The notes under the pieces: model-generated
What the model was told of the DNA's origin: nothing
Seen by the model: only the letters and a program-made list of their open reading frames with translations
The model's database searches: none
Shown here: piece after piece, positions 11,978 through 39,027 of the stretch
Position numbering within the stretch: the stretch's first letter is position 1
Layout of the letters: each line of letters starts with the position of its first letter
Origin: an uncultured delta proteobacterium
Lineage (GTDB): Bacteria; Desulfobacterota; Binatia; DP-6
Length of the DNA: 64,000 nucleotides
Reading direction: 5' to 3'
Assembly: GCA_963811605.1 (NCBI GenBank)
Contig: CAWESA010000010.1
Span: 1,165,066-1,229,065, forward strand
Program-made: the position numbers and the translations under genes

Positions 11978-12024
11978 GGGCGACGCGCTCGACGCTACAC
12001 GAGCGCGTCGCCCGATGCATGCGC

Positions 12025-13987: not shown

Positions 13988-16181
<2,194 letters not shown>

Positions 16182-16198
<17 letters not shown>

Positions 16199-16589: not shown

Positions 16590-16656
16590 GCCCTGAGCCC
16601 GCGCGCGCGACGTGCCATTGACGGCGCCGCTGCCGGTTTGCGAGAAACCCGGGCGA

Positions 16657-17937: not shown

Positions 17938-19332
17938 TCAGGGCGTCGCGCTCGCGCCGGCCACGTCGGCGCGCGCCAGGATGCGCGCGACGATGGCGTC
18001 GTAGTCGCCGCCGAAGTGGTGCCCCCCGTCCTGCGGCATCGACGTGGCGAGCCCGGCATCCAGGACCGGGCACAGGCTGTCGGACTCGTCGCGACCGTAG
18101 ATGCACAGGATCGGCATGCCGCGCAGCTTCTCGACCTCCGGCCGGGTCGGCAGCGTGTCGCCGTGCACCGCGTCGCTCACCCAGTCGGAGAGATGGAACT
18201 GGAAGTCCACGCCCGTGCCGGGTCCCAGGAGCACGACCAGCGCGACGCGTGCGCGCAGGTCGGCCGGCAGGCGGTTGGTCAGGAACGGCAGGACGTCGGC
18301 CCCGCGCGAGTAGCCGAGCAGCAGCACACGGCGCGCGTGCCAGGCGGCGAGATAGTGGCGCAGGATGCGCGCGAGATCGGCCGCCGCGCCGTCGGGCGTC
18401 CGGCGCGTCCAGAAGTAGCGCAGGGAGTTGAGCCCGACGACGCCGACGCCGCGCGTCGCGAGCTGCTCGCCGATGTCGCGATCGATGTTCGCCCACCCGC
18501 CGTCGCCGGAGAGGATCACCGCCAGCATATCGGTGGACGGCCCGCTCCCCGGCACCTCGATCAGCGGCAGGTCGGCCACCTCGGCCGCCGCGGGGGCGCG
18601 GTCCTCGGCCGGCGCCACGCCGGCGACCGCGTGCAAGGCCGCCCGCAGCACGCGGTCTCGATCGTGCGGCGGGGCGACCAGCAGCTTGGCGTGCCCGACG
18701 GCCCCCACGAAGGCGCGCGTGGCATCGAGCGGGCACTCCGGATCGTCCTCCGGCTCGACGACCACCCAGCGTCCCTGGACGTGCGGCGACGGCGCGAGCC
18801 GGATCGTGCCACCATCGCCGGTGGTGGCCACGAGTCCGCGCAGCCGCCCCGGCGGCTTCGGCAGGTCGAGCGCCGGACAGAAGTCCACGCTGATCGCACC
18901 CCGGAACGTGTCCGGGTTGGCCTCGGCCAGCGCGGCGTACGCCAGCGCCGCGCCCGCCTGCCGTCCCACCAGCACGGGCAGCTGGTATGCCGATACGCCG
19001 AGCGCACGCTGCGCGAACTGGCTGAGCAGCTCGAGGTCGGCGGACGGATAGACCTCGTCGCCTGGAGCCTGCGCGACGTGCGCGCGATACTGCGCCAGAT
19101 CGACCCCGAGGACGAGCGCGCCCGCGCCGGCGAGCAGCTCGGCCAGGTCGAGCGTGGCGCGATCCATGCCACCGTCGCCCGAGAGCAGGAGGGCAACGCC
19201 CGCGGGCTCACCGGCCGGCCGCGTCACCGTGATGTCGCCGATCGGGTCGTAGCGCAGCGTCTGCGGCGCCGCCCAGACCCCGCCGGCACGCAGGAGGACC
19301 GCCGCCGCGAGCAGTCGCCGCCATCGCCTCAT
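17938..19332 (-). CDS. acvB: AcvB/VirJ-family protein (lysyl-phosphatidylglycerol hydrolase-type), tandem-duplicated domain
   Basis: Signal peptide MRRWRRLLAAAVLLRAGGVWA. Two homologous halves: VALLLSGDGGMDRATLDLAELLAGAGALVLGVD and LAVILSGDGGWANIDRDIGEQLATRGVGVVGLN. The start overlaps the mprF stop (ATGA). Confidence 0.75.
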   Translation of the reverse strand: MRRWRRLLAAAVLLRAGGVWAAPQTLRYDPIGDITVTRPAGEPAGVALLLSGDGGMDRATLDLAELLAGAGALVLGVDLAQYRAHVAQAPGDEVYPSADLELLSQFAQRALGVSAYQLPVLVGRQAGAALAYAALAEANPDTFRGAISVDFCPALDLPKPPGRLRGLVATTGDGGTIRLAPSPHVQGRWVVVEPEDDPECPLDATRAFVGAVGHAKLLVAPPHDRDRVLRAALHAVAGVAPAEDRAPAAAEVADLPLIEVPGSGPSTDMLAVILSGDGGWANIDRDIGEQLATRGVGVVGLNSLRYFWTRRTPDGAAADLARILRHYLAAWHARRVLLLGYSRGADVLPFLTNRLPADLRARVALVVLLGPGTGVDFQFHLSDWVSDAVHGDTLPTRPEVEKLRGMPILCIYGRDESDSLCPVLDAGLATSMPQDGGHHFGGDYDAIVARILARADVAGASATP

Positions 19333-21875
19333 CGCGTGACGACGCCCTTCATGCCGCCGGAGACGAGTGCGGCAACGTTGGTGAGCACGCGCGGCAACAC
19401 GACGCCGCCCGGCGACGCCAGGTAGCGCGGGTCCCACACGGGGTCGAACTTGTCCTTGAACCGGCGCAGACCCTGGAAGTTGTAGAACTCCTCGCCGTGC
19501 CGGAAGAGCAACGCGCCGAGCCGGTTCCAGAGCGGCCCGAGCGCATGCCCCTCGAGGCCGGAGAACGGCGCCATGCCGAGATTGAACCAGCGGTAGCCCT
19601 CGCCCTTCCCCCACAGGAACAGCTCGACGAAGAGGAACTCCATCAGGCCCGGATGCGCCCCGGCGCGGTAGCGCATCAGGTCGCAGGACGCCTCCTCGTG
19701 ATCGGCGCCGGGCAGGAGATTGGTGAAGGCGATCAGCGCTCCCTCGCGGCGCACGACGGCGACGGGCAGCCGCGTCAAGTAGTCGGGCGAGAAGAAGCCG
19801 AGCGAGAAGCCCTTCTCCCGCGTGCGTTTCTGCGCCAGCCAGGCGTCCGAGATCTCCCGCAGATCCGGCAGCAGGGCGGCGACGCCTCCTGGAGGCACGA
19901 CCTCGAAGGTGAGGCCGTCGCGCTGCGCCCGGCGGTACGTGGTGCGCAGGCTCTTGCGGGCGCCGCCGTCGAGGGAGAACGTGGCGAGCGGCACGCGCGC
20001 TTCCTCGCCCAGCTTCCGGAGGTCGAGACCCATGTCGAGGTAGAGCGGGAGCTGCTCGGCGCCGACCTCGTAGAACACGGCCCAGCCGCCATGCCGATCG
20101 CTCAGCTCGCGGAAGCGCCAGGCCAGCTCGCGGATCACGTCGGGCGGCCCGACCGGATCACCGAGCGCGACCCAGCTGCGCCCCTCGATCCCGTACATGA
20201 CGAAGCCGCGTCGCCGCTCGTCGAGGAGGAATCGCTTGTCGCCGAGCAGCGCGAGACCCGCGGCGGCCCGGGGCGCCCGGGCCACCACCGCGGCGATGTG
20301 CGCCATGTCCTCCGGCGTCGGCGCGGGAAAGGCGGGGCGCGCGGGACGCAGCAAGCGCCAGCCGCCCACCAGCACGAGCACCAGCATCGCGCCGACCGAC
20401 GCCCGCAACGAGCGCGGCGCCTCGCCCGAGAGCTCGAACTGCCACCAGAGATCGCGCGAGTACTCGACGTGCTTGAAGGAGAAGAGCAGGAGCCAGGTGA
20501 TGCCGACGACGACGAGCAGGATGGCGGCGATCCACTCGGTGGTGAACGGCTCGTCGAGAAGCGACAGGCGACGGAAGAACTGCCGCCGGCACGGCAGCAG
20601 CGCGGCGAGGACGAGCGTGAGGAGGATCGCCTCCTCGTAGTCGAACCCCTTGAGCAGGGAGGCGACGATGCCGGCGACCAGCAGCGCCACGGTCACCATC
20701 CAGGCGCCGTCGAGGCGGCGCTGCAGTCCCCGCGCGAGGACCAGCAGCGCGGCACCCACCAGGCTGCCGACGAAATGCGACACCTCCACCACCGACAGCG
20801 GCAGCACGTCGCCGAGGAGCCCGAGCCGCCCCGCGGCGGCCGGTGTCGCCCCCGAAGCGAGCAGGACGACGCCGGCGACGAAGCTGGTCGCCGCGAGGAT
20901 CTGCGGCAACGGCAACCAGCGGCCGACGATGCCCGCCGCCCGCGCCATGTGCGAGCGGCGCCGCAGCACCTCGCGCCCGGCGAGGAGCACGGCCGTGACG
21001 ATCAGCGGAACGAGGTAGTAGATCAGCCGGTAGGCGAGGAGCGAGGCGAGCATCGCCGCGCCGGCGGTGCCGCGCGGGACGAGGTGCAGCATGATCACCT
21101 CGAACACGCCGAGCCCCGCCGGCACGTGACTCACCACGCCGGCCACCTGCGCCAGCAGGAACACGGGAACGAAGCGCGGGAACGACACCAGGCCCGGCGG
21201 GAGCAGCACGAACAGCACGCTGGCGGCCAGCAGCCAGTCGGCCGCCGACAGCGCGACCTGCGCCAGGGCGACGCCCACCGACGGCATCGGCAGGGGCCAG
21301 CGCCGACCGTCGAGCGGCTTGATCGTCCCGGCGGCGAGCAGGAGATAGATGACGGTCACCGCGAGACACCCACCGCCGATCGTCCTGGCAAGCGCCACCG
21401 GCATGGGCAGGGCGAGCGCGGCGGCGGACGGCGAGACGAGCAGCGACATCCCGAGGAGCACCAGCACGCCGAGCCAGAAGGTGACCGCGTTGAGCGCGAT
21501 CACGCCCGCCACCTCGCGGCGGGACAGGCCCCATCCCGAGTACAGGTGCAGCCGCACGGCGGCGCCGCCCAGGAACGACGCGCCGACGTTGTGGGCGACG
21601 ACGTAGCTCACGAAGGACGCGAACGCCGTGCGGCGATAGGGCAGCGCGTGCCCGACCACGCGCAGGCCGAGCACGTCGTAGCCGCCGAGCACGAGGTAGT
21701 TGAGCAGCGTCAGCACGCCGGCTGCGACCAGGCGGAGCGGCGCGAGAGCCTGCAGCGCGGCCGCCACGTCGTGCAGGTGGTACTGGCCGAGCTCGTGCGT
21801 GAGCAGGCCCAGCGCCAGCACGAAGAGCAGCAGGCTGATCACCGCGCCCGCGATTTGCCTCCGCTCCGTCATCAC
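19329..21875 (-). CDS. mprF: phosphatidylglycerol lysyltransferase / flippase MprF (LpiA)
   Basis: 848 aa with a polytopic N-terminal flippase domain plus a C-terminal DUF2156 synthase domain (FLLDERRRGFVMYGIEGRSWVALGDPVGPP). Classic pairing with acvB downstream. Confidence 0.85.
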   Translation of the reverse strand: MMTERRQIAGAVISLLLFVLALGLLTHELGQYHLHDVAAALQALAPLRLVAAGVLTLLNYLVLGGYDVLGLRVVGHALPYRRTAFASFVSYVVAHNVGASFLGGAAVRLHLYSGWGLSRREVAGVIALNAVTFWLGVLVLLGMSLLVSPSAAALALPMPVALARTIGGGCLAVTVIYLLLAAGTIKPLDGRRWPLPMPSVGVALAQVALSAADWLLAASVLFVLLPPGLVSFPRFVPVFLLAQVAGVVSHVPAGLGVFEVIMLHLVPRGTAGAAMLASLLAYRLIYYLVPLIVTAVLLAGREVLRRRSHMARAAGIVGRWLPLPQILAATSFVAGVVLLASGATPAAAGRLGLLGDVLPLSVVEVSHFVGSLVGAALLVLARGLQRRLDGAWMVTVALLVAGIVASLLKGFDYEEAILLTLVLAALLPCRRQFFRRLSLLDEPFTTEWIAAILLVVVGITWLLLFSFKHVEYSRDLWWQFELSGEAPRSLRASVGAMLVLVLVGGWRLLRPARPAFPAPTPEDMAHIAAVVARAPRAAAGLALLGDKRFLLDERRRGFVMYGIEGRSWVALGDPVGPPDVIRELAWRFRELSDRHGGWAVFYEVGAEQLPLYLDMGLDLRKLGEEARVPLATFSLDGGARKSLRTTYRRAQRDGLTFEVVPPGGVAALLPDLREISDAWLAQKRTREKGFSLGFFSPDYLTRLPVAVVRREGALIAFTNLLPGADHEEASCDLMRYRAGAHPGLMEFLFVELFLWGKGEGYRWFNLGMAPFSGLEGHALGPLWNRLGALLFRHGEEFYNFQGLRRFKDKFDPVWDPRYLASPGGVVLPRVLTNVAALVSGGMKGVVTR

Positions 21876-21917
21876 CGGGTATCGGCTCGCTCGGCAAATT
21901 GCGCTACATCACCCCTG
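21876..21917. promoter_or_regulatory. 42-bp divergent intergenic region between the mprF and cytochrome-c/GCH-II operon starts
   Basis: Only 42 bp (accgggtatcggctcgctcggcaaattgcgctacatcacccctg) separate two divergent start codons, so promoter elements for both operons must overlap here. No consensus hexamers are asserted. Confidence 0.3.
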
Positions 21918-22775
21918 ATGCGACGTCCACGCCGGCCTCCGGCCCCACGAGTCGTCCCGGCGCTGGCGGTTGCCTGTGCGTGCGTCCTGCTGACCGCCGA
22001 ACGACCCGCCGCGGCTGCGTCGCTCCGCTTCCTGCGCGACGACACGGAGGTGGCGCGGCTCGACGCCGACACCCTCCGGCGCGACTGCGCCACGGAGACG
22101 ATCACCGTCGACGACCCCTACTACGAGCGCCGCGTACGCTACATCGCCTGCCCGCTGCGCGAGGTCCTGCGACTCGGGCTCGGCGAGGACGCGTCGGCGC
22201 TGGCCGGGCGCGACGTGCTCTTCCGCGCCTCCGACGGCTACGTGAAGCCCGCGGGCGGCGCGCGGGTGGCGGAGGACGGCGCCTACCTGGCCTTCGCCGA
22301 CGCCGACCGTCCTTCCGGCTTCGCGCCGCTCGGGCGCAAGGCGGTCGACCCCGGACCGTTCTATCTCGTGTGGACGAAACCGGCGCAGCGCGACCCCAAC
22401 GTCTACCCGTGGCCCTATCAGCTCGCCGCCATCGAGGTCACGGATCTGGCCCGCCGCTATCCCCACATCGTGCCGCGCGCGGTCGCGCACGGGTCGCTCG
22501 CGTGGGCCGGCTTCGACCTCTTCCGGGCCGAGTGCATCGCCTGCCACTCCATCAACGGCGAGGGCGGCACCGTCGGTCCCGATCTGAACATCCCGCAGAG
22601 CGTCGTCGAGTACCGGCCGGTCGAGCAGCTGAAGCGCTACATCCGCAATCCGGCGACGTTTCGCTACGGCAACATGCCCTCGCACGAGCACCTGACGGCG
22701 CGAGATCTCGACGCGCTCATCGCCTACTTCTCGGTCATGAAGACCCAGAAGCACGACCCGCGGGCGACGCCGTGA
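21918..22775 (+). CDS. secreted c-type cytochrome domain protein (unknown N-domain + C-terminal CxxCH)
   Basis: ATG 42 bp from the divergent mprF start. Signal peptide MRRPRRPPAPRVVPALAVACACVLLTA and heme motif CIACHSINGEGGTVGP...NMPSHEHL near the C-terminus. The real gene is only the last 286 codons of track ORF 19497..22775. Confidence 0.65.
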   Translation: MRRPRRPPAPRVVPALAVACACVLLTAERPAAAASLRFLRDDTEVARLDADTLRRDCATETITVDDPYYERRVRYIACPLREVLRLGLGEDASALAGRDVLFRASDGYVKPAGGARVAEDGAYLAFADADRPSGFAPLGRKAVDPGPFYLVWTKPAQRDPNVYPWPYQLAAIEVTDLARRYPHIVPRAVAHGSLAWAGFDLFRAECIACHSINGEGGTVGPDLNIPQSVVEYRPVEQLKRYIRNPATFRYGNMPSHEHLTARDLDALIAYFSVMKTQKHDPRATP

Positions 22776-23878
22776 CGCCTGCCGTGCAGGGGGCGCTGCT
22801 CGCGCTCGACGTCCGCCGCCTCGACACCGTGCACGGCCGCTTCCGCGCCCATCGCTTCCACAATCTGACCACGGGGCAGCCGTCGCTCGCCATCGCGATC
22901 GGGCGGCTCGGGGGACGCGCCCCGGTGCTGGCTCGCATCCACTCCTCGTGCGTCACCAGCGAGGTCTACGGGGCCTGCGACTGCGACTGCGCCGAGCAGC
23001 TCGATGCCGCGCTCGCCGCCATCGCCCGCGCCGGTCGTGGCGTGCTCTTCTACCTGACCCAGGAAGGGCGCGGAGCGGGCTTCGCCGCCAAGGCGCGCGA
23101 CCGCATGCTGGTGCAGGCCAGCCGGCATCGGCTCACCACCTTCGACGCCTATCAGCGGCTCGGGCTCGGGCACGATCAACGCCGCTACGACGAGGTTGCC
23201 GTCGCGTGCCGGCTGCTCGGCATCGCCGCGCCGCTTCGCGTGCTCACCAACAATCCCGAGAAGCTGGACGCGCTGCGGATAGCCGGCGTCGCCGTCGCGG
23301 GCCACCTTCCCGTGGCCGTCGGTGCCTCACCCTTCAGCGCCCACTACCTCACCGCCAAGTCGCGCTCGGGGCACCTCCTGGCGCCCGGACGCAGCACGCT
23401 GGCGGTCCTTCCCGAGCGCGTCGCGCGGCTACGGCCGCGCCGGGTGCGGGGGGCTCCCCGCTTCGTCGAGCTGGCCTCCTACCTGCTCCCGCTCCGGACA
23501 CCGGCGCCCGCCTGGTTCCGCCTCCATCTCTACCTCGACGCCGTCACGCGCGAGGAGCGCGTGGTGCTGACGCACGGCATGGGACGCCGCCTCCGCCGCC
23601 CGCCGCTCGTGCACGTGCAGCAAGACGTGCTGCTGGAGCGCTTCCCGCTCCGTCGCCCCCACCGGGCGCGATCGTGGCCACGCGCACGCGCCGCCATCGT
23701 CCGGCACGGCGCGGGATGCGTCCTCTTCCTGCCCGACGGCGAGACCCTCGAACCGGTCGCCGGCCGGCTGCTGGCGCAGCACCTTCCCGGGCGCCGCGCG
23801 GCGTGGGCGGGCGTGGCGGGCGATGCGATGGTCCCGGCGCTCACGCGCGCCGGGATACGGTTCGAGCCCTCGGCATGA
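22772..23878 (+). CDS. GTP cyclohydrolase II paralog with degenerate C-terminal duplicate half-domain
   Basis: GTG overlapping the upstream stop (GTGA). RibA zinc motif RIHSSCVTSEVYGACDCDCAEQL; GRGAGF...LTNNPEKL...SPFSAHYLTAKSRSGHLL match the GCH II core. Residues ~205-368 repeat the N-half pattern without the Cys ligands. Confidence 0.75.
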   Translation: MTPAVQGALLALDVRRLDTVHGRFRAHRFHNLTTGQPSLAIAIGRLGGRAPVLARIHSSCVTSEVYGACDCDCAEQLDAALAAIARAGRGVLFYLTQEGRGAGFAAKARDRMLVQASRHRLTTFDAYQRLGLGHDQRRYDEVAVACRLLGIAAPLRVLTNNPEKLDALRIAGVAVAGHLPVAVGASPFSAHYLTAKSRSGHLLAPGRSTLAVLPERVARLRPRRVRGAPRFVELASYLLPLRTPAPAWFRLHLYLDAVTREERVVLTHGMGRRLRRPPLVHVQQDVLLERFPLRRPHRARSWPRARAAIVRHGAGCVLFLPDGETLEPVAGRLLAQHLPGRRAAWAGVAGDAMVPALTRAGIRFEPSA

Positions 23879-25659
23879 CCCCGGCCGACTGGCGCGAGGG
23901 GCATCGCAGCCTCGCCCTGCGCGTCGCCGCGCTTCCTGCGCTCGCCGCGCGCGCCGCCGCCGAGGTCCTCGACCCTCCGGACCTCCCCGCGTCCGTCGGG
24001 CGCCTGGTCACCACGGGCATCGGCAGCTCCGAGTCGCACGCCCGCGTGCTCGCCGCGCTCGTCGCCGAGCACACGTCCCGGCCCGCACGCTTCGCGCCGG
24101 CCAGCGCCCTGCTCGCGTCCGCCGCGACGCGCACCGCCGACACGCTGGTGGTGTTCTCGCAAGGACTGGCGCCGAACGCGCAGCTCGTCCTCGCCCACGC
24201 GCAGCGCTGGCGTCACGTGATCCTGGCGACCGCGGTCACCGACGCCGCACGCCTCGCACCGCTGCGCGCCCGCGGCGTGCTCCCGGTGCGGTTCGCCGGC
24301 GAGGACGAGTACGAGACGCTGGTGCGCGTCACGGGACCGATCACCGGCCTGCTGTGCGCGCTGCGACTCGCGCGTGCGCTCGGCGTCGCCATCGATGTCC
24401 CCGCCACGCTCGAGGTCGCCCTGGCGCAGGCGTCTGCCGCCACCGCCGGGGTGACGCCGGCCCTGCTCGCGGCGCCGCTCGCGCTGATCGCGTCGGGAAC
24501 CTACGGGGAGCTCCTGACCAACCTGCGTTTCAAGGTGCTCGAGGGGATGCTGCGCCCGCTGCCGCCGGTGTGGGACGTGCTCACGCTCGCCCACGGCCCG
24601 TTCCAGCAGGCGGCCACCGGGGCGGCCACGTTCCTCGCGCTCACCCGTCCGGACGCCCCGGACGACGAGCCCCTCCTCCAGCGCTTCGAGGCCATGCTCG
24701 ATCCGCCCCGCCAGGCGCTGGTCCGGCTGCGCGCGACGCTGCCGTCGCCCTTCGCGTTGCTGGAGCACGAGATGCAGCTCAACGCCCTGCTCCTGGGCGA
24801 GGTCGAGGCGCGTGGCGTCGATCAGGTGCGCTGGCCCGGGCGCGGCGCCGACGCGCCGCTGTACCAGCTCGCCGCACCGCCGATCGAGCGCCGGCTGGAC
24901 GACTGCACGTGGCGCGACATCGAGGGGCTGGTGACGCGCGGGTGTCGCACGGCCGTCCTGCCGCTCGGCTCCACCGAGCAGCATGGCCCGCACCTGCCGC
25001 TCGGCACCGACACCCGCATCGGCGACGCGCTCGCCGAGCGCCTGTGCGCGGCCGTCGGCGACGCGATCGCCTGCCCCGCCCTGCCCGTCGGCTGCGCCGG
25101 CGAGCATCTCGCGTTTCCGGGCACCCTGCACCTCGAGCCGTCCACCCTCGCGGGCGTCCTCCGCGACACCATTCGCGCGCTCGGGCGGCACGGCATCACG
25201 CGCGTCTTCGTGTTCTCCGCCCATGGCGGCAACGTCGCGCCGCTGCGCGCGATGCTGCCCGGGCTGCAGGCGGACTGCGCCCCGGTGGCGGTGGCGGCAT
25301 TCCTCGAGCTCGACGGCCTGATGGCCGCGCTGCAGGCCGTCGGCGCGGCCGCGGGCGTTCCCGCGGCGGAGGCCGGACACCACGCGGGCGAGGTGGAGAC
25401 GTCGATCGTGCTCGCGCTCGACGCGACGCGCGTGCGGTCGGGCGCGCTGGCGCCGGGCCTGGTGATCGACACCGACGACCCGCAGTCGCTGTTCTACCCC
25501 GACCTGCGCGCCAACGCGGCGGAGGGCGTGGTGGGCGACCCGCGACGCGCCGAGACGGCGCGCGGGCTGCGCTACCTGCGCGTCTGGGTCGAGCTGCTGG
25601 CCGCGGCGTATCGCGGCGAGAAGAACAGCATCCAGACCACCGGCACCCAGAACGCGTAG
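23875..25659 (+). CDS. fusion protein: SIS-like phosphosugar-binding N-domain + creatininase-fold amidohydrolase C-domain
   Basis: ATG overlapping the upstream stop (ATGA). N-half LVTTGIGSSESHARVLAAL...TLVVFSQGLAPNAQLVLAHA is SIS-like. C-half VLPLGSTEQHGPHLPLGTDTRIGDA...VFSAHGGN...HAGEVETS matches the creatininase/ArfB-type metal-amidohydrolase fold. Confidence 0.7.
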   Translation: MTPADWREGHRSLALRVAALPALAARAAAEVLDPPDLPASVGRLVTTGIGSSESHARVLAALVAEHTSRPARFAPASALLASAATRTADTLVVFSQGLAPNAQLVLAHAQRWRHVILATAVTDAARLAPLRARGVLPVRFAGEDEYETLVRVTGPITGLLCALRLARALGVAIDVPATLEVALAQASAATAGVTPALLAAPLALIASGTYGELLTNLRFKVLEGMLRPLPPVWDVLTLAHGPFQQAATGAATFLALTRPDAPDDEPLLQRFEAMLDPPRQALVRLRATLPSPFALLEHEMQLNALLLGEVEARGVDQVRWPGRGADAPLYQLAAPPIERRLDDCTWRDIEGLVTRGCRTAVLPLGSTEQHGPHLPLGTDTRIGDALAERLCAAVGDAIACPALPVGCAGEHLAFPGTLHLEPSTLAGVLRDTIRALGRHGITRVFVFSAHGGNVAPLRAMLPGLQADCAPVAVAAFLELDGLMAALQAVGAAAGVPAAEAGHHAGEVETSIVLALDATRVRSGALAPGLVIDTDDPQSLFYPDLRANAAEGVVGDPRRAETARGLRYLRVWVELLAAAYRGEKNSIQTTGTQNA

Positions 25660-26270
25660 TAGAGCTGGTTCGGCACCACGCGCAGGCCCCAGCCGACGTC
25701 GAGGCCCGCCACGATGAGGACGTCGGCGAGCGCCCACAGCGCGTAGTAGATCGCGACGTACGCCAGCACGGCGCGCAGGAACCGTTCGGCGCGGGGGCGG
25801 CGCGCAGGCACCAGGTGCGTCCGCCACCAGAGCGCGAGCAGGGCGAATGCGGTCTCGTAGATCAGCCACAGGCTCTGATCCGGCAGCGGACCGGCGACCG
25901 CCCGGGCCAGACGATGGAGCGTCACCGCCACCGCCGGGACGAGGACCGTCCATGCCGCCGCACGCACGAACGTGCCCGCCAGCGGCCGCTCCGGCTCCAT
26001 CACGCCGAGGACGAGGAGGAAGACGCGGAAGTCGCCGAGCAGGACGAACGGGATCATCGTCATTCCCCCCGGCCCCGTCGCCACCGGGTCGACGATGGTC
26101 TCGAGCGCGAACGCCGCCGCCCAGGCGCGCACGAACATGGCCGCCCGCGGCTCCGCGCCCGGCGCGCGCGGCCGCAGCCAGGGCAGCGCGAGCAGGAAGA
26201 GCGCCGGAAGGGCGACCAGGCCCCACAGCCCCTGCAGGTCGCTCTGGTAGAACGCTTGCCACGGTCCCAC
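25572..26270 (-). CDS. hypothetical 7-TM membrane protein
   Basis: GTG start 1 nt after the cdaA-fusion stop. Seven hydrophobic helices (LWGLVALPALFLLALPWL ... LYYAFWVPVVWMLFF). The 3' end overlaps the convergent SIS-creatininase gene by 88 nt. Confidence 0.5.
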   Translation of the reverse strand: MGPWQAFYQSDLQGLWGLVALPALFLLALPWLRPRAPGAEPRAAMFVRAWAAAFALETIVDPVATGPGGMTMIPFVLLGDFRVFLLVLGVMEPERPLAGTFVRAAAWTVLVPAVAVTLHRLARAVAGPLPDQSLWLIYETAFALLALWWRTHLVPARRPRAERFLRAVLAYVAIYYALWALADVLIVAGLDVGWGLRVVPNQLYYAFWVPVVWMLFFSPRYAAASSSTQTRR

Positions 26271-26271
26271 G

Positions 26272-27471
26272 TCAGGATTCCGGCGCCGCCGGCTGCTGTT
26301 CGGGGAGCGGCGCGGCCTGATGGACCGAGATCTTCACCTCGTCGGGGTCGATGTCCTCGAGCGTGAGCGACTTGGGATAGCGCAGATCTCGCCCGAGAAC
26401 CTGGAAGGTGCGGCGGCCCTGCGACGCCATGCTGGCGTCGACCGTGATGCGCAGGAAGCGCGGCGCGAAGAGGTAGAACTCGCGCCGGAGACCGGAGAGG
26501 GTGACGTCGATCTTGGCGGGCTTGATCTCGTCGAGGACCATGCCGGGCGGCAGGTTCGAGAGCTCGACCGGCACGGGGAAGGTGCGCTCGAGCGGGCGCG
26601 ATCCGGGCACGGCCGCCATCCACAGCGCCGACACGAAGACCAGCGATGCGATCTTCTCCACCCAGTGCTCGCGCAGGAGCTGCCGCCAGAACGACGGCCG
26701 CTCGCCGTCGCCCGGCCGCGTCTCGCGCAGGAAGAGCTCGATCTCCGCCGCCAGCTGGCCCGGGTCGGCCATGCGCCGGAGCCGGCCGTTGCGGGCCACC
26801 GAGATCACGCCGCGCTCCTCCGACACGACCAGGCTGAGTGCGTCGGTCAGCTCGGCGAGTCCCAGCGCGGCGCCGTGCCGGGTCCCCACACCCGCCAGGG
26901 CCTGGAAATTGGTCGACAGCGGCAGGTGCGCGGAGAAGCGGGTCACGCGGTCGCCCTCCAGGATGATGGCGCCGTCATGCCCCGGCGAATGGGGATCGAA
27001 CAGGCTCTCGAGCAGCGGCACGCTCACGACGGCGTCCAGCGGCACCCCGCCGCGCACGTGGCGCGCGACCGGCTGCAGTCCCGGCAGGACGACGAGCGCG
27101 CCGCGCCGCTGGCGCGCGAGATTGGACAGCGACTCGACCAGGATGTCGGCCGGCAGCGAGCGCGGGGGCTGCCGGCGGCGGCCGCGCACGCTCCACACCC
27201 CGAGGCGCTCGAAGAGCTGGCGCAGCTCCTCCTGGAACAGCACCACGATGAGCACGACCGAGATGGCGAAGAAGCTGCGGAAGATGGCGGTCGTCAGCTG
27301 GAGGTCGAGGGCCTCGGCGAGCACGTACAGACCGGCCAGGATGAACAGCCCGATGGCGACGAACCCGGCCTGCGTTCGCCGGATCCAGACCACGGCCGTG
27401 TAGACCAGGGCCGCGACCAGCAGGATGTCGACGACATCCGCCAGCTCGATCACGTCCACCGGGTTCTGCAT
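26272..27471 (-). CDS. cdaA: diadenylate cyclase CdaA fused to a YbbR(CdaR)-like C-terminal domain
   Basis: Three N-terminal TM helices, then DAC domain motifs [16 protein letters not shown] and [34 protein letters not shown]. The C-terminal ~150 aa ([31 protein letters not shown]...) is YbbR-like. Confidence 0.75.
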
Positions 27472-27502
27472 CCGCGTCGCGACCTACTGGGGCGAGCGGG
27501 CG

Positions 27503-29494
27503 ATGGCAAGCCATCCCGGCCCGGAGCACGGGAATCACGCCTCGGCAGGAAGGGGACGCCCTGCTACAAGCCTGCTCGTGCCCGGCGACCGCACCCTCCT
27601 GACCGACCAGGACCTCTACCTCTTCAACGAGGGCACGCATCTTCGCCTGTGGGAGAAGCTCGGCGCACACCTGGTCGAGGGCGGCGTCCACTTCGCGGTC
27701 TGGGCGCCGAACGCCGACGCGGTCGCGGTGATCGGCGACTGGAACGACTGGGACCCCGCCCGCAACCCGCTCCGCTCGCGCGGCGCGTCCGGCATCTGGG
27801 AAGGCCTGGTGCCCGGCATCGGCCGCGGCGAGCGCTACAAGTATCGCGTCACCTCGCGCTACCGCTCCTATCGCGTGGACAAGGCCGACCCCTGCGGCTT
27901 CCTGCACGAGGCGCCGCCGCAGACCGCGTCGCGCGTCTGGTCCCTGGACTATTCCTGGGGCGACGGCGTCTGGATGCGGCAGCGGGGCGAGCGCCGCGCC
28001 CACGAGGCGCCCATGGCCATCTACGAGGTCCATCTCGGCTCGTGGCGCCGCAGCCCGGAGACACCGGACCAGCCGCTCGGCTACCGCGACCTGGCGCGGC
28101 CGCTGGCGGAGTACGCCCGCGACCTGGGGTTCACCCACGTCGAGCTCCTGCCCATCACGGAGCACCCGTTCTACGGCTCGTGGGGATACCAGATCACCGG
28201 CTACTACGCGCCGACGAGCCGCTACGGCACGCCCCAGGATCTGATGTTCCTGATCGACACGCTGCACCAGCACGAGGTCGGCGTCATCCTCGACTGGGTG
28301 CCCTCACACTTCCCCACCGACGCACACGGTCTCGGCTACTTCGACGGCACGCACCTCTACGAGCACGGCGATCCGCGCCAGGGCTTTCATCCCGACTGGG
28401 AGAGCTTCATCTTCAACTACGGTCGCAACGAGGTGCGGAGCTTCCTCACCTCCAACGCGCTGTTCTGGCTCGAGCACTACCACGTCGACGGCCTGCGCGT
28501 GGACGCGGTGGCGTCGATGCTCTACCTCGACTACTCGCGCCGCGCGGGCGAATGGGTCCCGAACCGCTTCGGCGGGCGCGAGAACCTCGACGCGATCGAC
28601 TTCCTGCGCTCCACCAACGAGCACGTCTACGCCTACCACCCGGGCGTGCAGACGACGGCGGAGGAATCCACCGCCTGGCCTTCGGTGTCGCGGCCGCTCT
28701 ACCTGGGCGGGCTCGGCTTCGGCTTCAAGTGGGACATGGGATGGATGCACGACACGCTGGACTATCTCAGACACGATCCCGTGCACCGGAAGTTCCATCA
28801 CACGGCGCTCACGTTCCGCGGTCTGTACGCCGCGTCGGAGAACTTCGTGCTGCCGCTGTCGCACGACGAGGTCGTGCACGGCAAGGGCTCGCTCCTCGGG
28901 AAGATGGCGGGCGACGACTGGCAGCGGTTCGCCAACCTGCGCCTGCTGCTCGGCTACATGTGGACGCTCACCGGCAAGAAGCTGCTCTTCATGGGTGGCG
29001 AGCTGGCGCAGGAGCGCGAGTGGAACCACGACACCAGCCTCGACTGGCACCTGCTGCACGATCGCGCGCACGCCGGCATCCAGCGCTGGGTGCGCGACCT
29101 GAACGCGGCCTACCGGACGCTCCCGGCGCTGCACGAGCTCGATTGCCACCCCGACGGCTTCTCGTGGATCGACTGCAGCGACGCGGAGCAGAGCACGCTG
29201 GTCTACCTGCGTCGCGGCCGGACGCCGGACGACCTGGTCGTCGTGTCGTGCAACTTCACCCCCGTGCCGCGTCACGGCTTCCGCGTCGGCGTGCCCGTGG
29301 CCGGCTGGTGGCGAGAGGCCCTCAACAGCGACGCCGAGGCGTACGGCGGCAGCGGCCAGGGCAACTTCGGCGGCCTCGCGAGCGCGCCGGTGGCGTGGCA
29401 CGGCCAGCCCCAGTCGCTCGTGATCACCCTGCCGCCGCTCGGGCTGGTGGTGCTGACGGCGCCAGCCGGCACGTCCGTCGGATCCGAGCGGTGA
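27503..29494 (+). CDS. glgB: 1,4-alpha-glucan branching enzyme
   Basis: [44 protein letters not shown] and [12 protein letters not shown] are GH13 GlgB signatures. The start is uncertain (ATG 27503 chosen; 27425 would overlap the divergent cdaA). Confidence 0.8.
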
Positions 29495-30462
29495 GCACGC
29501 CCGCACCCCCGGGGCCGAACCCGTCGCCGGCCATCGTCCAGACCGACCGGCTCACGCGCCGCTTCGGCGACGTCGAGGCCGTCACCGACCTCTCGCTCGC
29601 GATCACGCGAGGCCAGATCTTCGGATTCCTCGGGCCCAACGGCGCGGGAAAGACGACCACCATCAAGATGCTCTGCGGGCTGGTGACGCCGACCCGGGGG
29701 AGCGCGACGGTGGCGGGACACGACATCCTGCGCGAGCGCGACGCGATCAAGCGCGAGACCGGCTACATGGCGCAGACCTTCTCCCTCTATCCGGACCTCA
29801 CCGTCGAGGAGAACTTCCGCTTCTTCGCGGGCGCATACGGCGTGTACGGGGCCGCCGCCACGCGGCGCATGGACACCCTCTTCGCGGAGATCGAGCTGGC
29901 GGACCTGCGCGACGTGCAGGCCGGGCGCCTGTCGGGCGGCATGAAGCAGCGGCTCGCGCTCGCGTGCGCCCTCGTGCACGACCCGGAGCTCGTCTTCCTC
30001 GACGAGCCGACGGCCGGCGTCGACCCGGCCAACCGCCAGCGTCTGTGGGACTTCCTCTACGCGCTCGCCGAGGGCGGCACGTCGCTCTTCGTCACCACGC
30101 ACTACCTCGACGAAGCCGAACGCTGCCATGCCGTCGGCTTCATGCTGGACGGACGCCTGATCGGCCACGGCGACCCCCGCGTGCTGCGCGAGCAGCTGCG
30201 CGATCGCATCGTCGGGGTCGAGGTCCGTCGCGGCGTCGAGGCGATGCGCGCGCTGCGCGGCGTGCCGGGCGTGGAGGCCGTCACCATTCACGGCAACGAG
30301 CTGCGCGTGTGCTTCGACCGGCGGATCGACTGGCACGCGTCGGAGGCGTCGCTGCGCGAGATGGCGACCCGCGCCGGCGTGCCGCTCGACCGCGTGTATC
30401 CGCTCGATCCCACCCTCGAGGACCTCTTCCTCGCCTACGAGCGCCACGGGACGATGACGTGA
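29491..30462 (+). CDS. ABC transporter ATP-binding protein (ABC-2 exporter type)
   Basis: GTG overlapping the glgB stop (GTGA). Walker [10 protein letters not shown], signature [12 protein letters not shown], Walker [13 protein letters not shown]. Confidence 0.8.
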
Positions 30463-31628
30463 TGTGGAACATCTACCACCTGGCGCTGAAGGAGTTCCTG
30501 CACCTGGTGCGGGACCGGCGCACCCTCGCCTTCCTGATCCTCATCCCGTCGGTGCTGACGGTCATCTTCGGCTACGCCATCGGCAACCCGCGCGTCACCG
30601 GCATCCGGACGCGGGTGCTCGACCTCGACGGCGGGCGAATCGCCTACGAGTTCGTCGAGGCGATCGGCGAGAGCAGCACGTTCAAGGCCGACGTGCGCGA
30701 GAACGCGACCGACGCCGACGTCGCGCAGGCGGACGAGGACCTGCTGCACGATCGCATCAACGCCTACGTCGTGCTGCCGAAGGGACTGAGCGCGGCGCTC
30801 GACGACGGCAGGCCCGCCACGGTCCGGCTGGTGGTGGACGGCTCCGACACCTTCATGGCGCCCTCGGCGATGGGGGAGCTGGCCAAGACCACCGTGCAGC
30901 AGAACACCTTCGTGATCGCCAACCAGCTCCAGCGCGCCGGCAAGGTACGCACCGTCGAGGACGGCCTCCAGGCCGCGGCGCCGATCGAGCTCAGCACGGA
31001 GTACCGCTTCAATCCCGACCTGAAGAGCCAGAACTTCGTCATGCCGGGCGTGATCGGGCTCATCCTCCAGCTCCTCGCGGTCATCGTGATGGCGACGTCG
31101 ATCGCCCGCGAGCGCGAACGCGGCACGCTGGAGCAGCTCGCCGTCACGCCGCTGGCACCCGCCGAGATCTTCGTCGGCAAGCTCATCCCCTATTTCGTGC
31201 TCGCCGTGCTCGACACGGTGAACGCCATGATCCTCGCCCGCCTCCTCTTCGGCGTGTCGCTGGCGGGACACTATCCGGTGGTGATCACGCTTCTCGTCGT
31301 GTTCATCCTGGGCTCGCTCGGCATCGGGCAGCTCATCTCCACGGTGTCGAAGAACCAGGGCCAGGCGGTGCTGCTGGCGGTGTTCTACATCATGCCCGCC
31401 TTCGTCCTGTCGGGCGCCTTCACCCCGGTCGAGACGCAGCCCGAGCAGGTGCGTCCGGTCTCGCTCCTGTTCCCGCTCACGTACTTCTGCCGCGGCTTTC
31501 GCGCCGCCCTGCTGCGCCAGTCGTCGTTCGCGGACGTCGCGGTCGACCTCCTGGCGCTGAGCGCGTTCGTGGTCCTGACGTTCGGCGCCTCGGTGCTGCT
31601 GCTGCGCATGCGCCCCGACGTGCGCTGA
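30462..31628 (+). CDS. ABC-2 family transporter permease
   Basis: TGATG overlap with the ATPase gene. [32 protein letters not shown]... plus six TM helices is typical of ABC-2 permeases. Confidence 0.75.
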   Translation: MWNIYHLALKEFLHLVRDRRTLAFLILIPSVLTVIFGYAIGNPRVTGIRTRVLDLDGGRIAYEFVEAIGESSTFKADVRENATDADVAQADEDLLHDRINAYVVLPKGLSAALDDGRPATVRLVVDGSDTFMAPSAMGELAKTTVQQNTFVIANQLQRAGKVRTVEDGLQAAAPIELSTEYRFNPDLKSQNFVMPGVIGLILQLLAVIVMATSIARERERGTLEQLAVTPLAPAEIFVGKLIPYFVLAVLDTVNAMILARLLFGVSLAGHYPVVITLLVVFILGSLGIGQLISTVSKNQGQAVLLAVFYIMPAFVLSGAFTPVETQPEQVRPVSLLFPLTYFCRGFRAALLRQSSFADVAVDLLALSAFVVLTFGASVLLLRMRPDVR

Positions 31629-31801
31629 GAGGCGCCCAGGGCAAGGGCCGGCCGGCGTACCCCCGGTCGAGGGTGCCGTCGCACGCGACGCCGGGTCGCA
31701 AGGAGGTGTCGATTGCCAGCAGGCGCCGCGTGAGTCACTGTGGGCGAACATCGAGCAGCGCCGGTGCCCGCCCGGGCGGCGGGTGCCGCAGGAGGAGGAG
31801 G

Positions 31802-32617
31802 ATGATGAGGATGACGATGCTCGCGGCCGCCCTGGTCGCCTGTGCCTGGTCGGCGACGGCCCACGCCCAGCGCGGCGGCCCGCCCGCTTCGCCGTTCGCG
31901 TACGCGGTGTTCGGGCTCGGCGACGTGACGTTCAAGGACGGGGTGCGCGCCGTCGATGGTGACGTCGGATCCAACGCCGGGACGATGACGGTCGGCCAGA
32001 ACGTCCGCATCGCCGGCACGGTGGTGGGGCAGACCATCACGCTGCGCAAGGGAGCGCTGCCGGACGAGCTGTTCTGCCTGCTGCTGAAAGGCGCCCCATC
32101 CACCATGACGTGCCAGGCGGCGACCTTCCCGGTGGTGAGCGCCTCGCAGCTCCCAGCCGTCCAGGTGGTCCCGGGGACGACGGACCTTCGGGTGCCAAGA
32201 GGCGGCAGCACCTCGCCGATCCCCGCCGGTGCCTATGCCAACGTCCGCGTGGCCTCGCACGGCACGCTGGTCCTGGCGGGCGGCACCTACGTCTTCAGGT
32301 CGATCCGCGTCGGCGCGCGCGGACAGCTGCTGTGCGCGGCGGCCTGCCAGCTCGGCGTCGCCAACACCGTGCAGGTTCGGGCGAACGCCATCCTCGGCGG
32401 TACGAGCGGAACGCGCGCGGAGGCGGTCCGCGTGAACGTCGCCAGGACCTCCGGCAACACCGTCTTCTCGGCCAACAAGCGATCGAACGTGTCGGCCGTC
32501 GTGTACGCTCCCGGCGGTCGCATCGACCTGCGCGACCGCGGCACCTACGTCGGCGCCTTCGTGGGCGGACGGATCAAGGTCGGCCGGGGCGTCATCGTGC
32601 AGGCGCGACGGCCGTGA
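31802..32617 (+). CDS. secreted beta-helix-like protein (ice-binding-like / DUF3494-like?)
   Basis: GGAGGAGGAGG RBS, MMRMTMLAAALVACAWSATAHA signal peptide, and repeated short strands (GTYVFRSIRVGARGQL, VQVRANAILGG, VYAPGGRIDLRDRGTYVGAFVGGRIKVGRGVIV). Confidence 0.5.
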   Translation: MMRMTMLAAALVACAWSATAHAQRGGPPASPFAYAVFGLGDVTFKDGVRAVDGDVGSNAGTMTVGQNVRIAGTVVGQTITLRKGALPDELFCLLLKGAPSTMTCQAATFPVVSASQLPAVQVVPGTTDLRVPRGGSTSPIPAGAYANVRVASHGTLVLAGGTYVFRSIRVGARGQLLCAAACQLGVANTVQVRANAILGGTSGTRAEAVRVNVARTSGNTVFSANKRSNVSAVVYAPGGRIDLRDRGTYVGAFVGGRIKVGRGVIVQARRP

Positions 32618-32725
32618 CACCTGCGCGACGCGCCTGTGGCGCGTGCAGGCGCGTTCAATCGCGTTGAACGACGTTCCACGCTCCGGGCGTTCCCAGTCGC
32701 CGGTGCCGCGGAGCGAGCCGGGCGC

Positions 32726-34213: not shown

Positions 34214-34262
34214 CCCGGCAGGCGTACCCACCCGGCGGCGACGCGTCAAATTTCGCGCGACG

Positions 34263-34703
34263 TCAGGGCCGGCAGGTCCCCACCGCCCAGGTGCAGCCGG
34301 ACGGAAGCCGCCCGTCGCGCAGCTCGGCACACTGCGCCTTGCAATCGAACTCGCTCATCCCGTTCTTGCAGTCGGATCGGTCGTCGCCGGTCGGGAAGCA
34401 GCAGCATCCCACCCGGTTCTCGGCCTTCTCGCACGACTCCCCGAACCACCCGCCCAGCAGGGGCTTGGCGTCCTGCGCCTTCGAGGCCTCGACTGCCTTC
34501 TTCCAGTCGGCGAGCTTGGCGAACTCGGGCGCTGCCGGCTGCACCGCCAGGCAATCGGCCTGGCTCTTCGGGGCGCAGGCGTACGAGCCGCCGTATCCCA
34601 CGCAGCAGCATCCCTCGGCGGCCACCGCCCGCGTGTCCCGTGCGCCGGTCCACAGCACCGCCAAGATCGCGATCACGACGCCCGCTCTGGCCTGGCTGGT
34701 CAT
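34263..34703 (-). CDS. small Cys-rich secreted protein
   Basis: MTSQARAGVVIAILAVLWTGA signal peptide. 15 Cys including CCCVGYGGSYAC and CCCFPTGDDRSDC. Confidence 0.5.
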   Translation of the reverse strand: MTSQARAGVVIAILAVLWTGARDTRAVAAEGCCCVGYGGSYACAPKSQADCLAVQPAAPEFAKLADWKKAVEASKAQDAKPLLGGWFGESCEKAENRVGCCCFPTGDDRSDCKNGMSEFDCKAQCAELRDGRLPSGCTWAVGTCRP

Positions 34704-34797
34704 TGCGCGAAGCCCTCCCTCGGTTGGCGACACGTTGCCCACCGCCTGCCCGGCGACCACCGGCCGGGCAGGCCGCGGATCGGAGTGACGAAGGGTC

Positions 34798-35055: not shown

Positions 35056-35126
35056 GGGGTGTCCTCCCGATGGGTCGATGGGCCGTCCCTAGCAGATTGT
35101 CCGTCGGTTGACAGTCGGCGGGGCCG

Positions 35127-35720: not shown

Positions 35721-35722
35721 GG

Positions 35723-37314: not shown

Positions 37315-37340
37315 CGAACCGCCGCGGCCGCCGCTGCGCA

Positions 37341-38186: not shown

Positions 38187-38189
38187 TGC

Positions 38190-39020: not shown

Positions 39021-39027
39021 CGGCCCC

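Follow-up and report, generated by a model that had tools for sequence, protein, structure and literature searches.

c-di-AMP is an essential messenger that is toxic in excess, and how its synthase CdaA is switched is still unsettled. In Firmicutes such as Listeria monocytogenes, Bacillus subtilis and Staphylococcus aureus, CdaA (DacA or YbbP; 4rv7, 6hvl, 6huw, 9g69) consists of three transmembrane (TM) helices and a cytoplasmic DAC domain. Its partner CdaR, which is made of one TM helix and three to four extracellular YbbR domains, contacts CdaA via the TM domains (PMC10243994, PMC10636490). A passage of a preprint citing Brogan 2025 (bioRxiv 10.64898/2026.09.06.749708) also reports that the extracellular disordered region of CdaR senses peptidoglycan status and activates CdaA. 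Several YbbR structures are available for Firmicute CdaR proteins, namely Lmo2119 (5hqh), SP_1560 (4qdy), BH0266 (2kq1) and Dhaf_0833 (2kpu, 3lyw, 2l3u).

Departures from the cdaA-cdaR-glmM operon have been described. Operons lacking glmM exist in the diderm spirochaetes Borrelia (bt0008-bt0009) and Leptospira (cdaA-cdaR), in which the cyclase and its YbbR partner are encoded by separate genes. Natural CdaA-CdaR fusions, in which CdaA continues into the TM helix and the YbbR domains of CdaR, have been noted in streptococci (UniProt A5LQF8, E1M7C3, V8IIN0; PMC10243994); they are described as large, contain a full CdaR and occur in sporadic strains of species that normally possess two genes. Finally, c-di-AMP has been linked to the branching enzyme GlgB, and thus to glycogen control, through SbtB in cyanobacteria (PMC10117731). 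Here we describe a locus that shares features with each of these systems, in a 64-kb window, which is the whole stretch of DNA analysed.

Results

The minus strand of the window carries at 26272..27471 a cdaA-ybbR fusion gene encoding 399 residues followed by a TGA stop. From the N-terminus, its product comprises three TM helices (CdaA_N) and the DAC domain, then a further TM helix (TM4), a single YbbR-fold domain and a short disordered tail. A first-pass annotation had proposed that the cyclase carries a YbbR-like domain as its own C-terminus within one polypeptide, and family-level Pfam matches, a PDB profile, AF2/Foldseek and the relatives of the protein all agree with this. The protein has more than 2460 homologues, the best 120 being nearly all of about 390-410 aa, and it aligns end to end with 36 of them at 50-87% identity. 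Its nearest relatives come from MAGs labelled 'delta proteobacterium' and Binatia, and the sequence is that of a high-GC host.

The cyclase half is readily recognized. The CdaA_N domain (PF19293, residues 8-83, 27223..27450, minus strand) scores above threshold (E 7.4e-10, 39.3 bits for a cut-off of 23.8), and hydropathy peaks place its three TM helices at about residues 10-28, 37-55 and 61-79. The catalytic DAC domain (PF02457, residues 113-230, 26782..27135, minus strand) is also well above threshold (E 5.7e-32, 110 bits for a cut-off of 27). Solved CdaA chains can be aligned with the protein from end to end (E values of 1e-24 to 1e-30), and in 9g69, 8ofg and 6huw the DAC domain could be aligned residue by residue. 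The DGA motif is conserved at 166-168 and the SEE motif is present at 217-219, these catalytic residues being common to the Firmicute enzymes and to the present protein. At the position of the RHR motif of the solved CdaAs, by contrast, the sequence reads RHG (198-200), with R and H kept, as the first-pass annotation had correctly transcribed together with the three helices and the DGA motif; the third residue is S, G or A across the family. The protein differs further from Firmicute CdaA by about 130 extra C-terminal residues, which form TM4, the YbbR domain and the tail, and by its score against the NCBIfam equivalog TIGR00159 (154.4 bits, below the cut-off of 188.8). On these sequence scores, the fused cyclase is a member of a related subfamily and not a strict TIGR00159 equivalog.

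As the DAC domain uses ATP as its substrate, it has to lie in the cytoplasm. The counts of K and R, which are two in loop 1, none in loop 2 and seven after TM3, are compatible with loop 1 and the stretch following TM3 being cytoplasmic.

The fourth TM helix lies at about residues 271-290 (26602..26661, minus strand); it coincides with a hydropathy peak at 270-291 and with helix 19-36 of an AF2 model computed for residues 252-399 (pLDDT 89.4). Its end contains an invariant W284 and an invariant V288-P289-G290 in the 36 homologues. The flanking charges (three versus two K+R) do not by themselves decide its orientation. In both the AF2 model and the hydropathy profile this helix directly precedes the YbbR domain, as in CdaR.

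The single YbbR-fold domain occupies about residues 293-385 (26317..26595, minus strand). A domain search with the query alone, as the first-pass annotation had suggested, confirmed the DAC domain and gave for PF07949 a match at residues 300-353 that stays below threshold (E 0.022, 15.5 bits for a cut-off of 22.3). The match of the C-terminal 150 residues or so to YbbR profiles is thus supported at the family level and not by the Pfam score of the query itself. Indeed, PF07949 is found at E<=0.1 in 21 of the 36 full-length homologues, with a best value of 3.3e-7, and longer relatives of 473-506 aa display CdaA_N, DAC and YbbR matches of which the latter, at 30-58 bits, exceed the Pfam cut-off; two YbbR stretches are reported in three of them. 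When the C-terminal profile was compared with PDB sequences, the three best matches were all YbbR proteins (2l3u, E 0.0012; 5hqh Lmo2119, 0.026; 2kq1, 0.073), and it matches a stand-alone YbbR protein of 312 aa (P0371) at E 4.6e-21. YbbR structures are likewise the top Foldseek matches of the AF2 model (4qdy, E 1.4e-4; 2kq1, 5hqh, 3lyw and 2kpu with TMt of 0.53-0.77), together with ribosomal TL5/L25. In addition to the residues cited above for TM4, P318, R330, F332, D345, G352, R353, P366 and P376 are invariant in the 36 homologues. Altogether, the profiles and the model support homology of this C-terminal module with the TM-anchored YbbR modules of CdaR.

Since the DAC domain is cytoplasmic and is followed by one TM helix, the YbbR domain is predicted to be extracytoplasmic, that is, periplasmic. 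The protein ends with a disordered Pro/Ala/Glu-rich tail of 14 residues (386-399, 26275..26316, minus strand), no secondary structure being modelled after residue 134 of the fragment. In the 36 homologues the tails measure 9-31 aa, are not alignable and consist to 94% of polar, small or Pro residues. The succession of a TM helix, a YbbR fold (TL5/L25-like), here predicted to be extracytoplasmic, and a disordered C-terminal stretch is common to this module and to Firmicute CdaR. The first-pass annotation was right about the fused regulator, although only one YbbR domain is present and not the full set of three or four; the module is moreover covalently joined to the cyclase and its tail is far shorter than that of CdaR. 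As judged from its sequence, the 399-aa protein is a membrane-bound CdaA-type c-di-AMP synthase bearing on its C-terminus a one-domain version of CdaR. A 1:1 ratio of cyclase to regulator is a trivial consequence of such a single-chain fusion.

Such fusions are not rare. With the C-terminal module as query, 3986 clusters (50% identity) are matched at E<=1e-3, and 816 still at the stricter E<=1e-10, the full-length members having about 380-410 aa with the matched region at about 255-400. Among 587 confirmed matches in the genome collection, the best 80, many of which come from related MAGs and are hence not independent, all have the fused architecture. Their labels include the Deltaproteobacteria/Thermodesulfobacteriota and Myxococcota, in which a survey had been recommended, as well as Binatia, Acidobacteriota, Bacteroidota, Verrucomicrobiota, Omnitrophota and Elusimicrobia, about eight phyla in total. 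No second YbbR ORF was found within 6 kb of the fused cdaA in these best 80 of 587 loci, nor by hmmsearch in the 64-kb window. The streptococcal fusions contrast with the present family, a stable lineage of proteins some 400 aa long that occurs under many phylum labels and has a single YbbR domain (two in the relatives of 473-506 aa). The fused layout is real but, going by the domain matches, common in many Gram-negative lineages; the architecture is traceable in public domain databases, and existing annotation already calls the protein a diadenylate cyclase.

The locus is not a classical cdaA-cdaR-glmM operon, as glmM does not stand immediately downstream and is absent from the window. The active-site motif of phosphohexomutases, [ST]ASH[NL]P, is absent from all frames of the 64-kb window and from any frame within 6 kb of the fused cdaA in the best 80 of 587 loci (0/80). 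The gene that follows is, as had been noticed, that of a polytopic membrane protein (25572..26270, minus strand, 232 aa), whose GTG start lies on the same strand 1 nt beyond the TGA stop of cdaA. Its AF2 model contains seven long helices (pLDDT 90, pTM 0.87). No Pfam or NCBIfam family was above threshold for this 7-TM protein, and its 785 homologues are unnamed or called 'hypothetical protein'. An alignment of 30 sequences revealed D61, D80, R82, E139, D183, R197 and N201 as conserved polar residues.

Two known classes of 7-TM proteins were considered and rejected. For microbial rhodopsins, the best Foldseek match, 6lm0, reached only E 0.012 with a TM-score of about 0.46-0.55, and no Lys occurs in helix 7 or among the invariant and near-invariant columns. 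For Tmemb_40/CREST-type hydrolases, the match to PF10160 is partial and below threshold (18.4 bits for a cut-off of 25). The CREST superfamily is characterized by conserved histidines, and the 30-sequence alignment has no conserved His.

The 7-TM gene faces a three-gene cluster of the plus strand (21918..25659), with which it is convergent and overlaps by 88 bp. According to Pfam, this cluster encodes a cytochrome c (21918-22775), a GTP cyclohydrolase II (22772-23878) and a creatininase-family protein of 594 aa (23875-25659). The same convergent and overlapping arrangement is observed in 7/7 loci that hold the 7-TM gene, those other than the present one being L002-L005, L081 and L082. A 7-TM gene lies downstream of the fused cdaA in only four of the best 80 of 587 loci. 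The two genes abut only in the closest relatives, being directly adjacent, as here, in L002 and L003; in L004 and L005 an ORF of 177-254 aa separates them. Loose synteny within 8 kb is seen in L004, L005 and L083, the distance is 7.6 kb in GCA_026129405.1, and no DAC gene was called in the 11-kb L081 locus, which holds a 7-TM gene.

On its other side, cdaA is divergent from glgB (27503..29494, plus strand), which encodes a GH13 alpha-1,4-glucan branching enzyme with CBM_48, Alpha-amylase and Alpha-amylase_C Pfam domains. The two start codons are 31 bp apart, and L003 and L083 contain the same divergent pair. Genes of the GlgE pathway and of trehalose metabolism (glgE, treS-mak, glgB, trehalase) stand beside the fused cdaA in 43 of the best 80 of 587 loci, a sample that includes many related MAGs. 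When only loci with 3 kb or more of sequence on each side are counted, the figure is 26 of 43. The genes typically run cdaA-glgE-treS/mak-glgB and are separated by 17-290 nt.

Discussion

We propose that the CdaR protein, separate in Firmicutes, has here shrunk to a single YbbR domain preceded by one TM helix and followed by a short disordered tail, and is fused in frame to the C-terminus of the cyclase. The protein would have its N-terminus outside, followed by three TM helices, the cytoplasmic DAC domain, TM4, and the YbbR domain and tail in the periplasm. If the protein works as CdaA-CdaR does, its periplasmic module could report the state of the envelope or of the peptidoglycan. The signal would pass through TM4, assumed to be packed on TM1-3 as the TM helix of CdaR is in trans, and would alter how the DAC domains, which have to pair for c-di-AMP synthesis, associate in the cytoplasm. 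The fusion protein, like CdaR, ends in a disordered stretch. Taken as a whole, the explanation of an envelope-sensing synthase formed by CdaA and a mini-CdaR, linked to glucan metabolism and having the 7-TM gene as a bystander, appears to us probable.

One could object that the genes are in fact a separate cdaA and a short cdaR, joined by an assembly, frameshift or annotation error. The streptococcal fusions of the literature are limited to some strains, and we ourselves suspect some of them to be sequencing artefacts. For the present gene, however, the frame is uninterrupted, and junction and linker are conserved throughout the 36 aligned homologues, which rules out a frameshift artefact. GC3 is of coding type and uniform (0.94 in the cdaA-ybbR ORF, 0.93-0.94 over both minus-strand ORFs), no internal start or RBS signature for a separate ybbR gene was found at the junction, and the same module resides in one ORF in the best 80 of 587 loci, which come from independent assemblies. 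This objection is effectively already refuted, and we give it a negligible chance. Another view would see in the TM-YbbR module a structural relic or just one more membrane anchor, devoid of sensory or regulatory role. It has a single YbbR domain where CdaR has three or four, its sequence has diverged to below the Pfam threshold, and the function of CdaR itself is debated, stimulation and inhibition having both been reported (PMC10636490). Yet twelve invariant and several near-invariant residues of TM4 and the YbbR domain are retained down to 50% identity under several phylum labels, and the 816 clusters matched at E<=1e-10 add to this picture. Such purifying selection on the predicted periplasmic domain argues for a function, and a mere relic or anchor seems to us improbable.

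It had also been suggested that the 7-TM protein replaces GlmM as a membrane protein dedicated to modulating the fused cyclase. The spacing of 1 nt on the same strand would allow translational coupling and suggests that the two genes are co-transcribed in this genome, in which case a lineage-specific functional tie may exist; direct adjacency or loose synteny recurs in the few loci mentioned above, and known CdaA regulators act via its TM region (PMC10243994). Against this stand the rarity of the pair (4/80), the intervening ORF or larger distance in some relatives, and the locus in which no DAC gene was called. GlmM, besides, targets the cytoplasmic DAC domain (PMC10636490, PMC10243994), whereas the 232-aa protein is modelled as almost entirely composed of its seven TM helices and would expose very little cytoplasmic surface. 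Its invariant partner is the convergent creatininase/GTP-cyclohydrolase-II/cytochrome c cluster, with overlapping 3' ends in 7/7 loci. The replacement of GlmM is therefore not borne out and we regard a modulator role as quite unlikely; the 7-TM gene belongs with this cluster and is probably an unrelated neighbour of cdaA. Its abutment in this lineage could have arisen by loss of intervening genes.

Within the preferred explanation of a fused, envelope-sensing synthase, the glgB side of the locus deserves the most attention. The conserved proximity of cdaA to genes of the GlgE pathway and of trehalose metabolism, a correlation of gene positions, points to a coordination of c-di-AMP output with trehalose and alpha-glucan turnover, which would link an osmolyte to a carbon store. 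In cyanobacteria c-di-AMP is likewise connected with the branching enzyme; here cdaA adjoins glgB, glgE or treS-mak, the link is genomic only, no receptor resembling SbtB was identified, and the route is that of GlgE, from trehalose to glucan. More tentatively, and with considerable doubt on our part, the fused CdaA-YbbR proteins could represent a distinct and widespread diderm lineage partnered with the GlgE pathway or trehalase and not with glmM, in which c-di-AMP produced upon a periplasmic or envelope signal would directly coordinate the interconversion of trehalose and alpha-glucan, its receptor being one or more GlgE-pathway enzymes or an adaptor.

The value of the fusion as a discovery is modest because the architecture is common. 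Nevertheless, a single chain combining CdaA with a mini-CdaR, with its fixed 1:1 ratio, its one YbbR domain and its short tail, would be a convenient minimal system for the control of a cytoplasmic cyclase by an extracytoplasmic YbbR domain. The locus also illustrates that many Gram-negative phyla do not follow the cdaA-cdaR-glmM scheme known from Firmicutes. If the proposed coordination is true, it would give c-di-AMP osmoregulation a new output branch, trehalose being a compatible solute and alpha-glucan a storage compound. The adjacency of cdaA to the GlgE-pathway and trehalose genes, if functional, would tie c-di-AMP signalling to trehalose and glycogen homeostasis outside cyanobacteria.

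The fused cyclase gene

The G+C content of the window is 70-75% throughout. The cdaA-ybbR fusion is encoded on the minus strand by an ORF with an ATG start (26272..27471, 399 aa), next to which lies the ORF of the 7-TM protein, on the same strand and with a GTG start (25572..26270, 232 aa). The two ORFs meet in the sequence ...gaa tcc TGA c GTG gga..., which confirms that the second one starts 1 nt after the cdaA stop. Their GC3 values, 0.94 for cdaA and 0.93 for the 7-TM ORF, are those expected for real genes in this genome. In the 399-aa product, Pfam recognizes a CdaA_N domain (residues 8-83, E 7e-10), a DAC domain (residues 113-230, E 6e-32) and a weak YbbR match (residues 300-353, E 0.022, 15.5 bits for a gathering score of 22.3). 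The score of the cyclase against TIGR00159, the NCBIfam CdaA equivalog, is 154 bits and thus below the cut-off of 188.8.

Aligned with solved CdaA chains, the cyclase proved to have kept the DGA motif (residues 166-168) and the S-E-E stretch. At the position of the RHR motif of the solved CdaAs, the window cyclase has RHG (residues 198-200, window 26872..26880, minus strand), and each of the 36 aligned family members has RH[S/G/A]. Judged from the alignment, this replacement may be a signature of the fused-cyclase subfamily.

An Rfam scan of the whole 64-kb window (1..64000) gave no family at the gathering score, that is, neither a c-di-AMP riboswitch of the ydaO type nor an rRNA or other RNA. 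Promoters and terminators were searched for between positions 25300 and 27800 and none was found, such a scan being uninformative at 72% GC.

The C-terminus of the cyclase is a YbbR module

Since the YbbR match of the query alone is below threshold, we ran four further tests of the C-terminus, using homologues, a PDB profile search, AlphaFold2 and Foldseek, and a large protein-cluster search. Among 36 full-length homologues with 50-87% identity, 21 match PF07949 at E<=0.1, the best one at 3.3e-7. When a profile of residues 252-399 was compared with all PDB sequences, the top three matches were all YbbR proteins, namely 2l3u ("YbbR family protein", E 0.0012), 5hqh ("Lmo2119", the Listeria CdaR, E 0.026) and 2kq1 ("BH0266", E 0.073). 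The AlphaFold2 model of the same residues (mean pLDDT 89.4) displays a long helix that leads into a beta-rich domain, the tail being unstructured. In the PDB, Foldseek matched this model to the YbbR structures 4qdy, with an E-value of 1.4e-4, and 2kq1, 5hqh, 3lyw and 2kpu, for which the target-normalised TM-scores are 0.53-0.77. Ribosomal TL5/L25 proteins were also among the matches, and a structural likeness to L25 has been described for YbbR domains (PMC10636490).

The C-terminal profile was also searched against 1.84 billion representative proteins, and 3986 clusters were obtained at E<=1e-3, including 816 at E<=1e-10. The full-length proteins matched are about 380-410 aa long, the matched part being residues ~255-400. 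Longer relatives of 473-506 aa associate CdaA_N and DAC with YbbR above the Pfam cut-off (30-58 bits), Pfam reporting the YbbR match as two stretches in three of them, and a stand-alone YbbR protein of 312 aa (P0371) is matched at E 4.6e-21. Altogether, these matches identify the fused segment as a fourth TM helix (TM4, residues ~271-290 according to the AlphaFold2 model and to hydropathy), a single YbbR domain (residues ~293-385) and a tail of 14 residues made of Pro, Ala and Glu. Its length in the 36 homologues is 9-31 aa, its composition there is 94% polar, small or Pro, and it cannot be aligned. The first-pass annotation was therefore right to read the C-terminus as YbbR, although the query's own Pfam match is sub-threshold. 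A frameshift hiding two separate genes could have produced the same appearance. We looked for such an artefact and can exclude it, as the junction is kept in all aligned homologues, GC3 is uniform, and the module lies in the same ORF in the best 80 of at least 587 loci.

Distribution of the fusion and position of glmM

More than 2460 relatives of the cyclase were retrieved by a word-indexed protein search; the top 120 are nearly all full-length matches to proteins of about 390-410 aa. Scanning one genome for each species, we obtained at least 587 confirmed matches, the best 80 of which cover query residues ~1-390 and were used below. The labels of these 80 include Candidatus Binatia, Deltaproteobacteria/Thermodesulfobacteriota (including Syntrophobacteraceae) and Myxococcota, as well as Terriglobales, Bryobacterales, Bacteroidota, Verrucomicrobiia/Opitutaceae, Omnitrophota and Elusimicrobia. 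Such proteins are already named "diadenylate cyclase" in public sources, and full-text literature searches brought up no relevant account of such a fusion occurring naturally in Myxococcus or Deltaproteobacteria. The fusion is real, but with all of the best 80 of at least 587 matches fused it is a common architecture and not the unusual one that had been supposed.

None of the six frames contains the phosphohexomutase active-site motif, either in the whole window or in any of the 80 related loci. That glmM does not lie next to cdaA, as first proposed, is therefore the rule for the fused-cdaA family. Peptidoglycan synthesis needs GlmM, so the gene is expected elsewhere in the genome. The cdaA operons of Borrelia and Leptospira have likewise been documented to lack an adjacent glmM.

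The 7-TM gene probably belongs with another gene cluster

The AlphaFold2 model of the 7-TM protein (pLDDT 90, pTM 0.87) contains seven long helices, in agreement with the initial count. No Pfam or NCBIfam family scored above threshold for this protein, and its 785 homologues, all unnamed or "hypothetical protein", are also devoid of any Pfam match. Foldseek gave only weak matches in the PDB, to generic 7-TM or rhodopsin-type proteins (best E 0.012). The conserved polar residues are D61, D80, R82, E139, D183, R197 and N201, with neither a conserved lysine nor a conserved histidine. We rejected a rhodopsin-like identity for want of the helix-7 lysine, and a CREST/Tmemb_40 hydrolase identity for want of a conserved His.

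It had been supposed that this protein takes the place of GlmM as a partner of the cyclase. The 1-nt spacing does suggest co-transcription with cdaA. However, gene context argues against this role. By tblastn, the 7-TM gene was found downstream of a fused cdaA in only four (L002-L005) of the 80 loci, the best of at least 587. In GCA_026129405.1, the divergent pairing of glgB with cdaA is kept, but five genes (7.6 kb) stand between cdaA and the 7-TM gene. At another locus, L081, a SNF2 helicase, a decarboxylase and a hydrolase are encoded upstream of the 7-TM gene and no DAC gene was called. On the other hand, a cluster encoding a cytochrome c, a GTP cyclohydrolase II (GCH-II) and a creatininase-family protein (window 21918..25659, plus strand) is convergent with the 7-TM gene in all seven loci that hold the latter (the window, L002-L005, L081 and L082). 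The coding sequences overlap at their 3' ends, by 88 bp both in the window and in L082, and by 64 bp in L081. It is most parsimonious to group the 7-TM gene with this cluster. Loss of intervening genes would have brought it against cdaA in the lineage of the window, and a functional tie to cdaA specific to this lineage seems improbable.

In L004 (7304..7837) and L005 (~7322..7810), the space between cdaA and the 7-TM gene holds an ORF whose product is a homologue of a Cys-rich protein of 162 aa. More distant relatives, such as L082 (5466..5954), carry this ORF immediately upstream of the 7-TM gene; it is absent from the window, where the 7-TM gene abuts cdaA. Its products, of 162-177 aa, have an N-terminal hydrophobic, signal-like stretch and belong to no Pfam family. 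Within the convergent cluster, the creatininase-family protein is 594 aa long, its Creatininase domain covers only residues 343-578, and its N-terminal ~340 aa (window 23875..24900, plus strand) have no Pfam match. More speculatively, GCH-II together with an amidohydrolase of the creatininase fold could point to a pathway of the pterin or flavin type. Near the cyclase, immediately upstream of the gene for cytochrome c, lies a gene for an envelope-related MprF-like lysyl-phosphatidylglycerol synthase (19329..21908, minus strand; LPG_synthase_C, E 2e-97, and a weak LPG_synthase_TM match).

Association with alpha-glucan and trehalose genes

In the window, cdaA is divergent from glgB (27503..29494, plus strand; CBM_48, Alpha-amylase and Alpha-amylase_C domains), with 31 bp between the start codons. 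GlgE, a TreS-maltokinase fusion, GlgB, an alpha-amylase-family protein or a trehalase is encoded within 6 kb of cdaA in 43 of the 80 loci, which are the best of at least 587 genome matches, and such a gene is found in 26 of the 43 loci in which each flank extends over 3 kb or more. Most commonly, the genes run cdaA-glgE-treS/mak-glgB along a single strand and are 17-290 nt apart; in other loci, the glgE-treS/mak-glgB cluster is convergent and comes directly after cdaA. Bacteroidota loci have a trehalase or GlgE, and an Elusimicrobia locus has GlgB. Directly behind glgB in the window, on the same strand and with overlapping stop and start codons, comes an ABC-2 type transporter pair (29491..31628) made of an ATPase (29491-30462) and a permease (30462-31628).

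We estimate at well under 1% the probability that a single pathway cluster lies near cdaA by chance in a genome of several Mb. The association is strong, its strength being uncalibrated because the loci are not phylogenetically independent. We found no report of a link between cdaA and the GlgE pathway in the searchable literature. A mechanistic precedent comes from cyanobacteria, in which c-di-AMP-bound SbtB interacts with GlgB (PMC10117731). One could tentatively assume that the fused-cyclase lineage is functionally coupled to the GlgE/trehalose pathway, a possibility that we still regard as rather doubtful.

Topology and possible function of the fused cyclase

Loop 1 of the cyclase has 2 Lys and Arg residues, loop 2 has 0 and the stretch after TM3 has 7. 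Combined with the need of the DAC domain for ATP, these counts suggest that the N-terminus would be outside and the DAC domain cytoplasmic, the YbbR domain and the tail being periplasmic after TM4. A parallel can be drawn with the CdaA-CdaR pair of Firmicutes, which has the same layout but is made of two proteins instead of one chain. In that pair, the TM domain of CdaA is contacted by the TM helix of CdaR and the YbbR domains are extracellular (PMC10243994; PMC10636490); TM4 may pack in a comparable way in the fused cyclase. A preprint reports that an extracellular disordered region of Firmicute CdaR senses peptidoglycan status and activates CdaA (bioRxiv 10.64898/2026.09.06.749708). On the basis of these parallels, we propose that the periplasmic YbbR domain and the tail of the fused cyclase could sense the envelope, and that the signal would pass via TM4 to the DAC domains.
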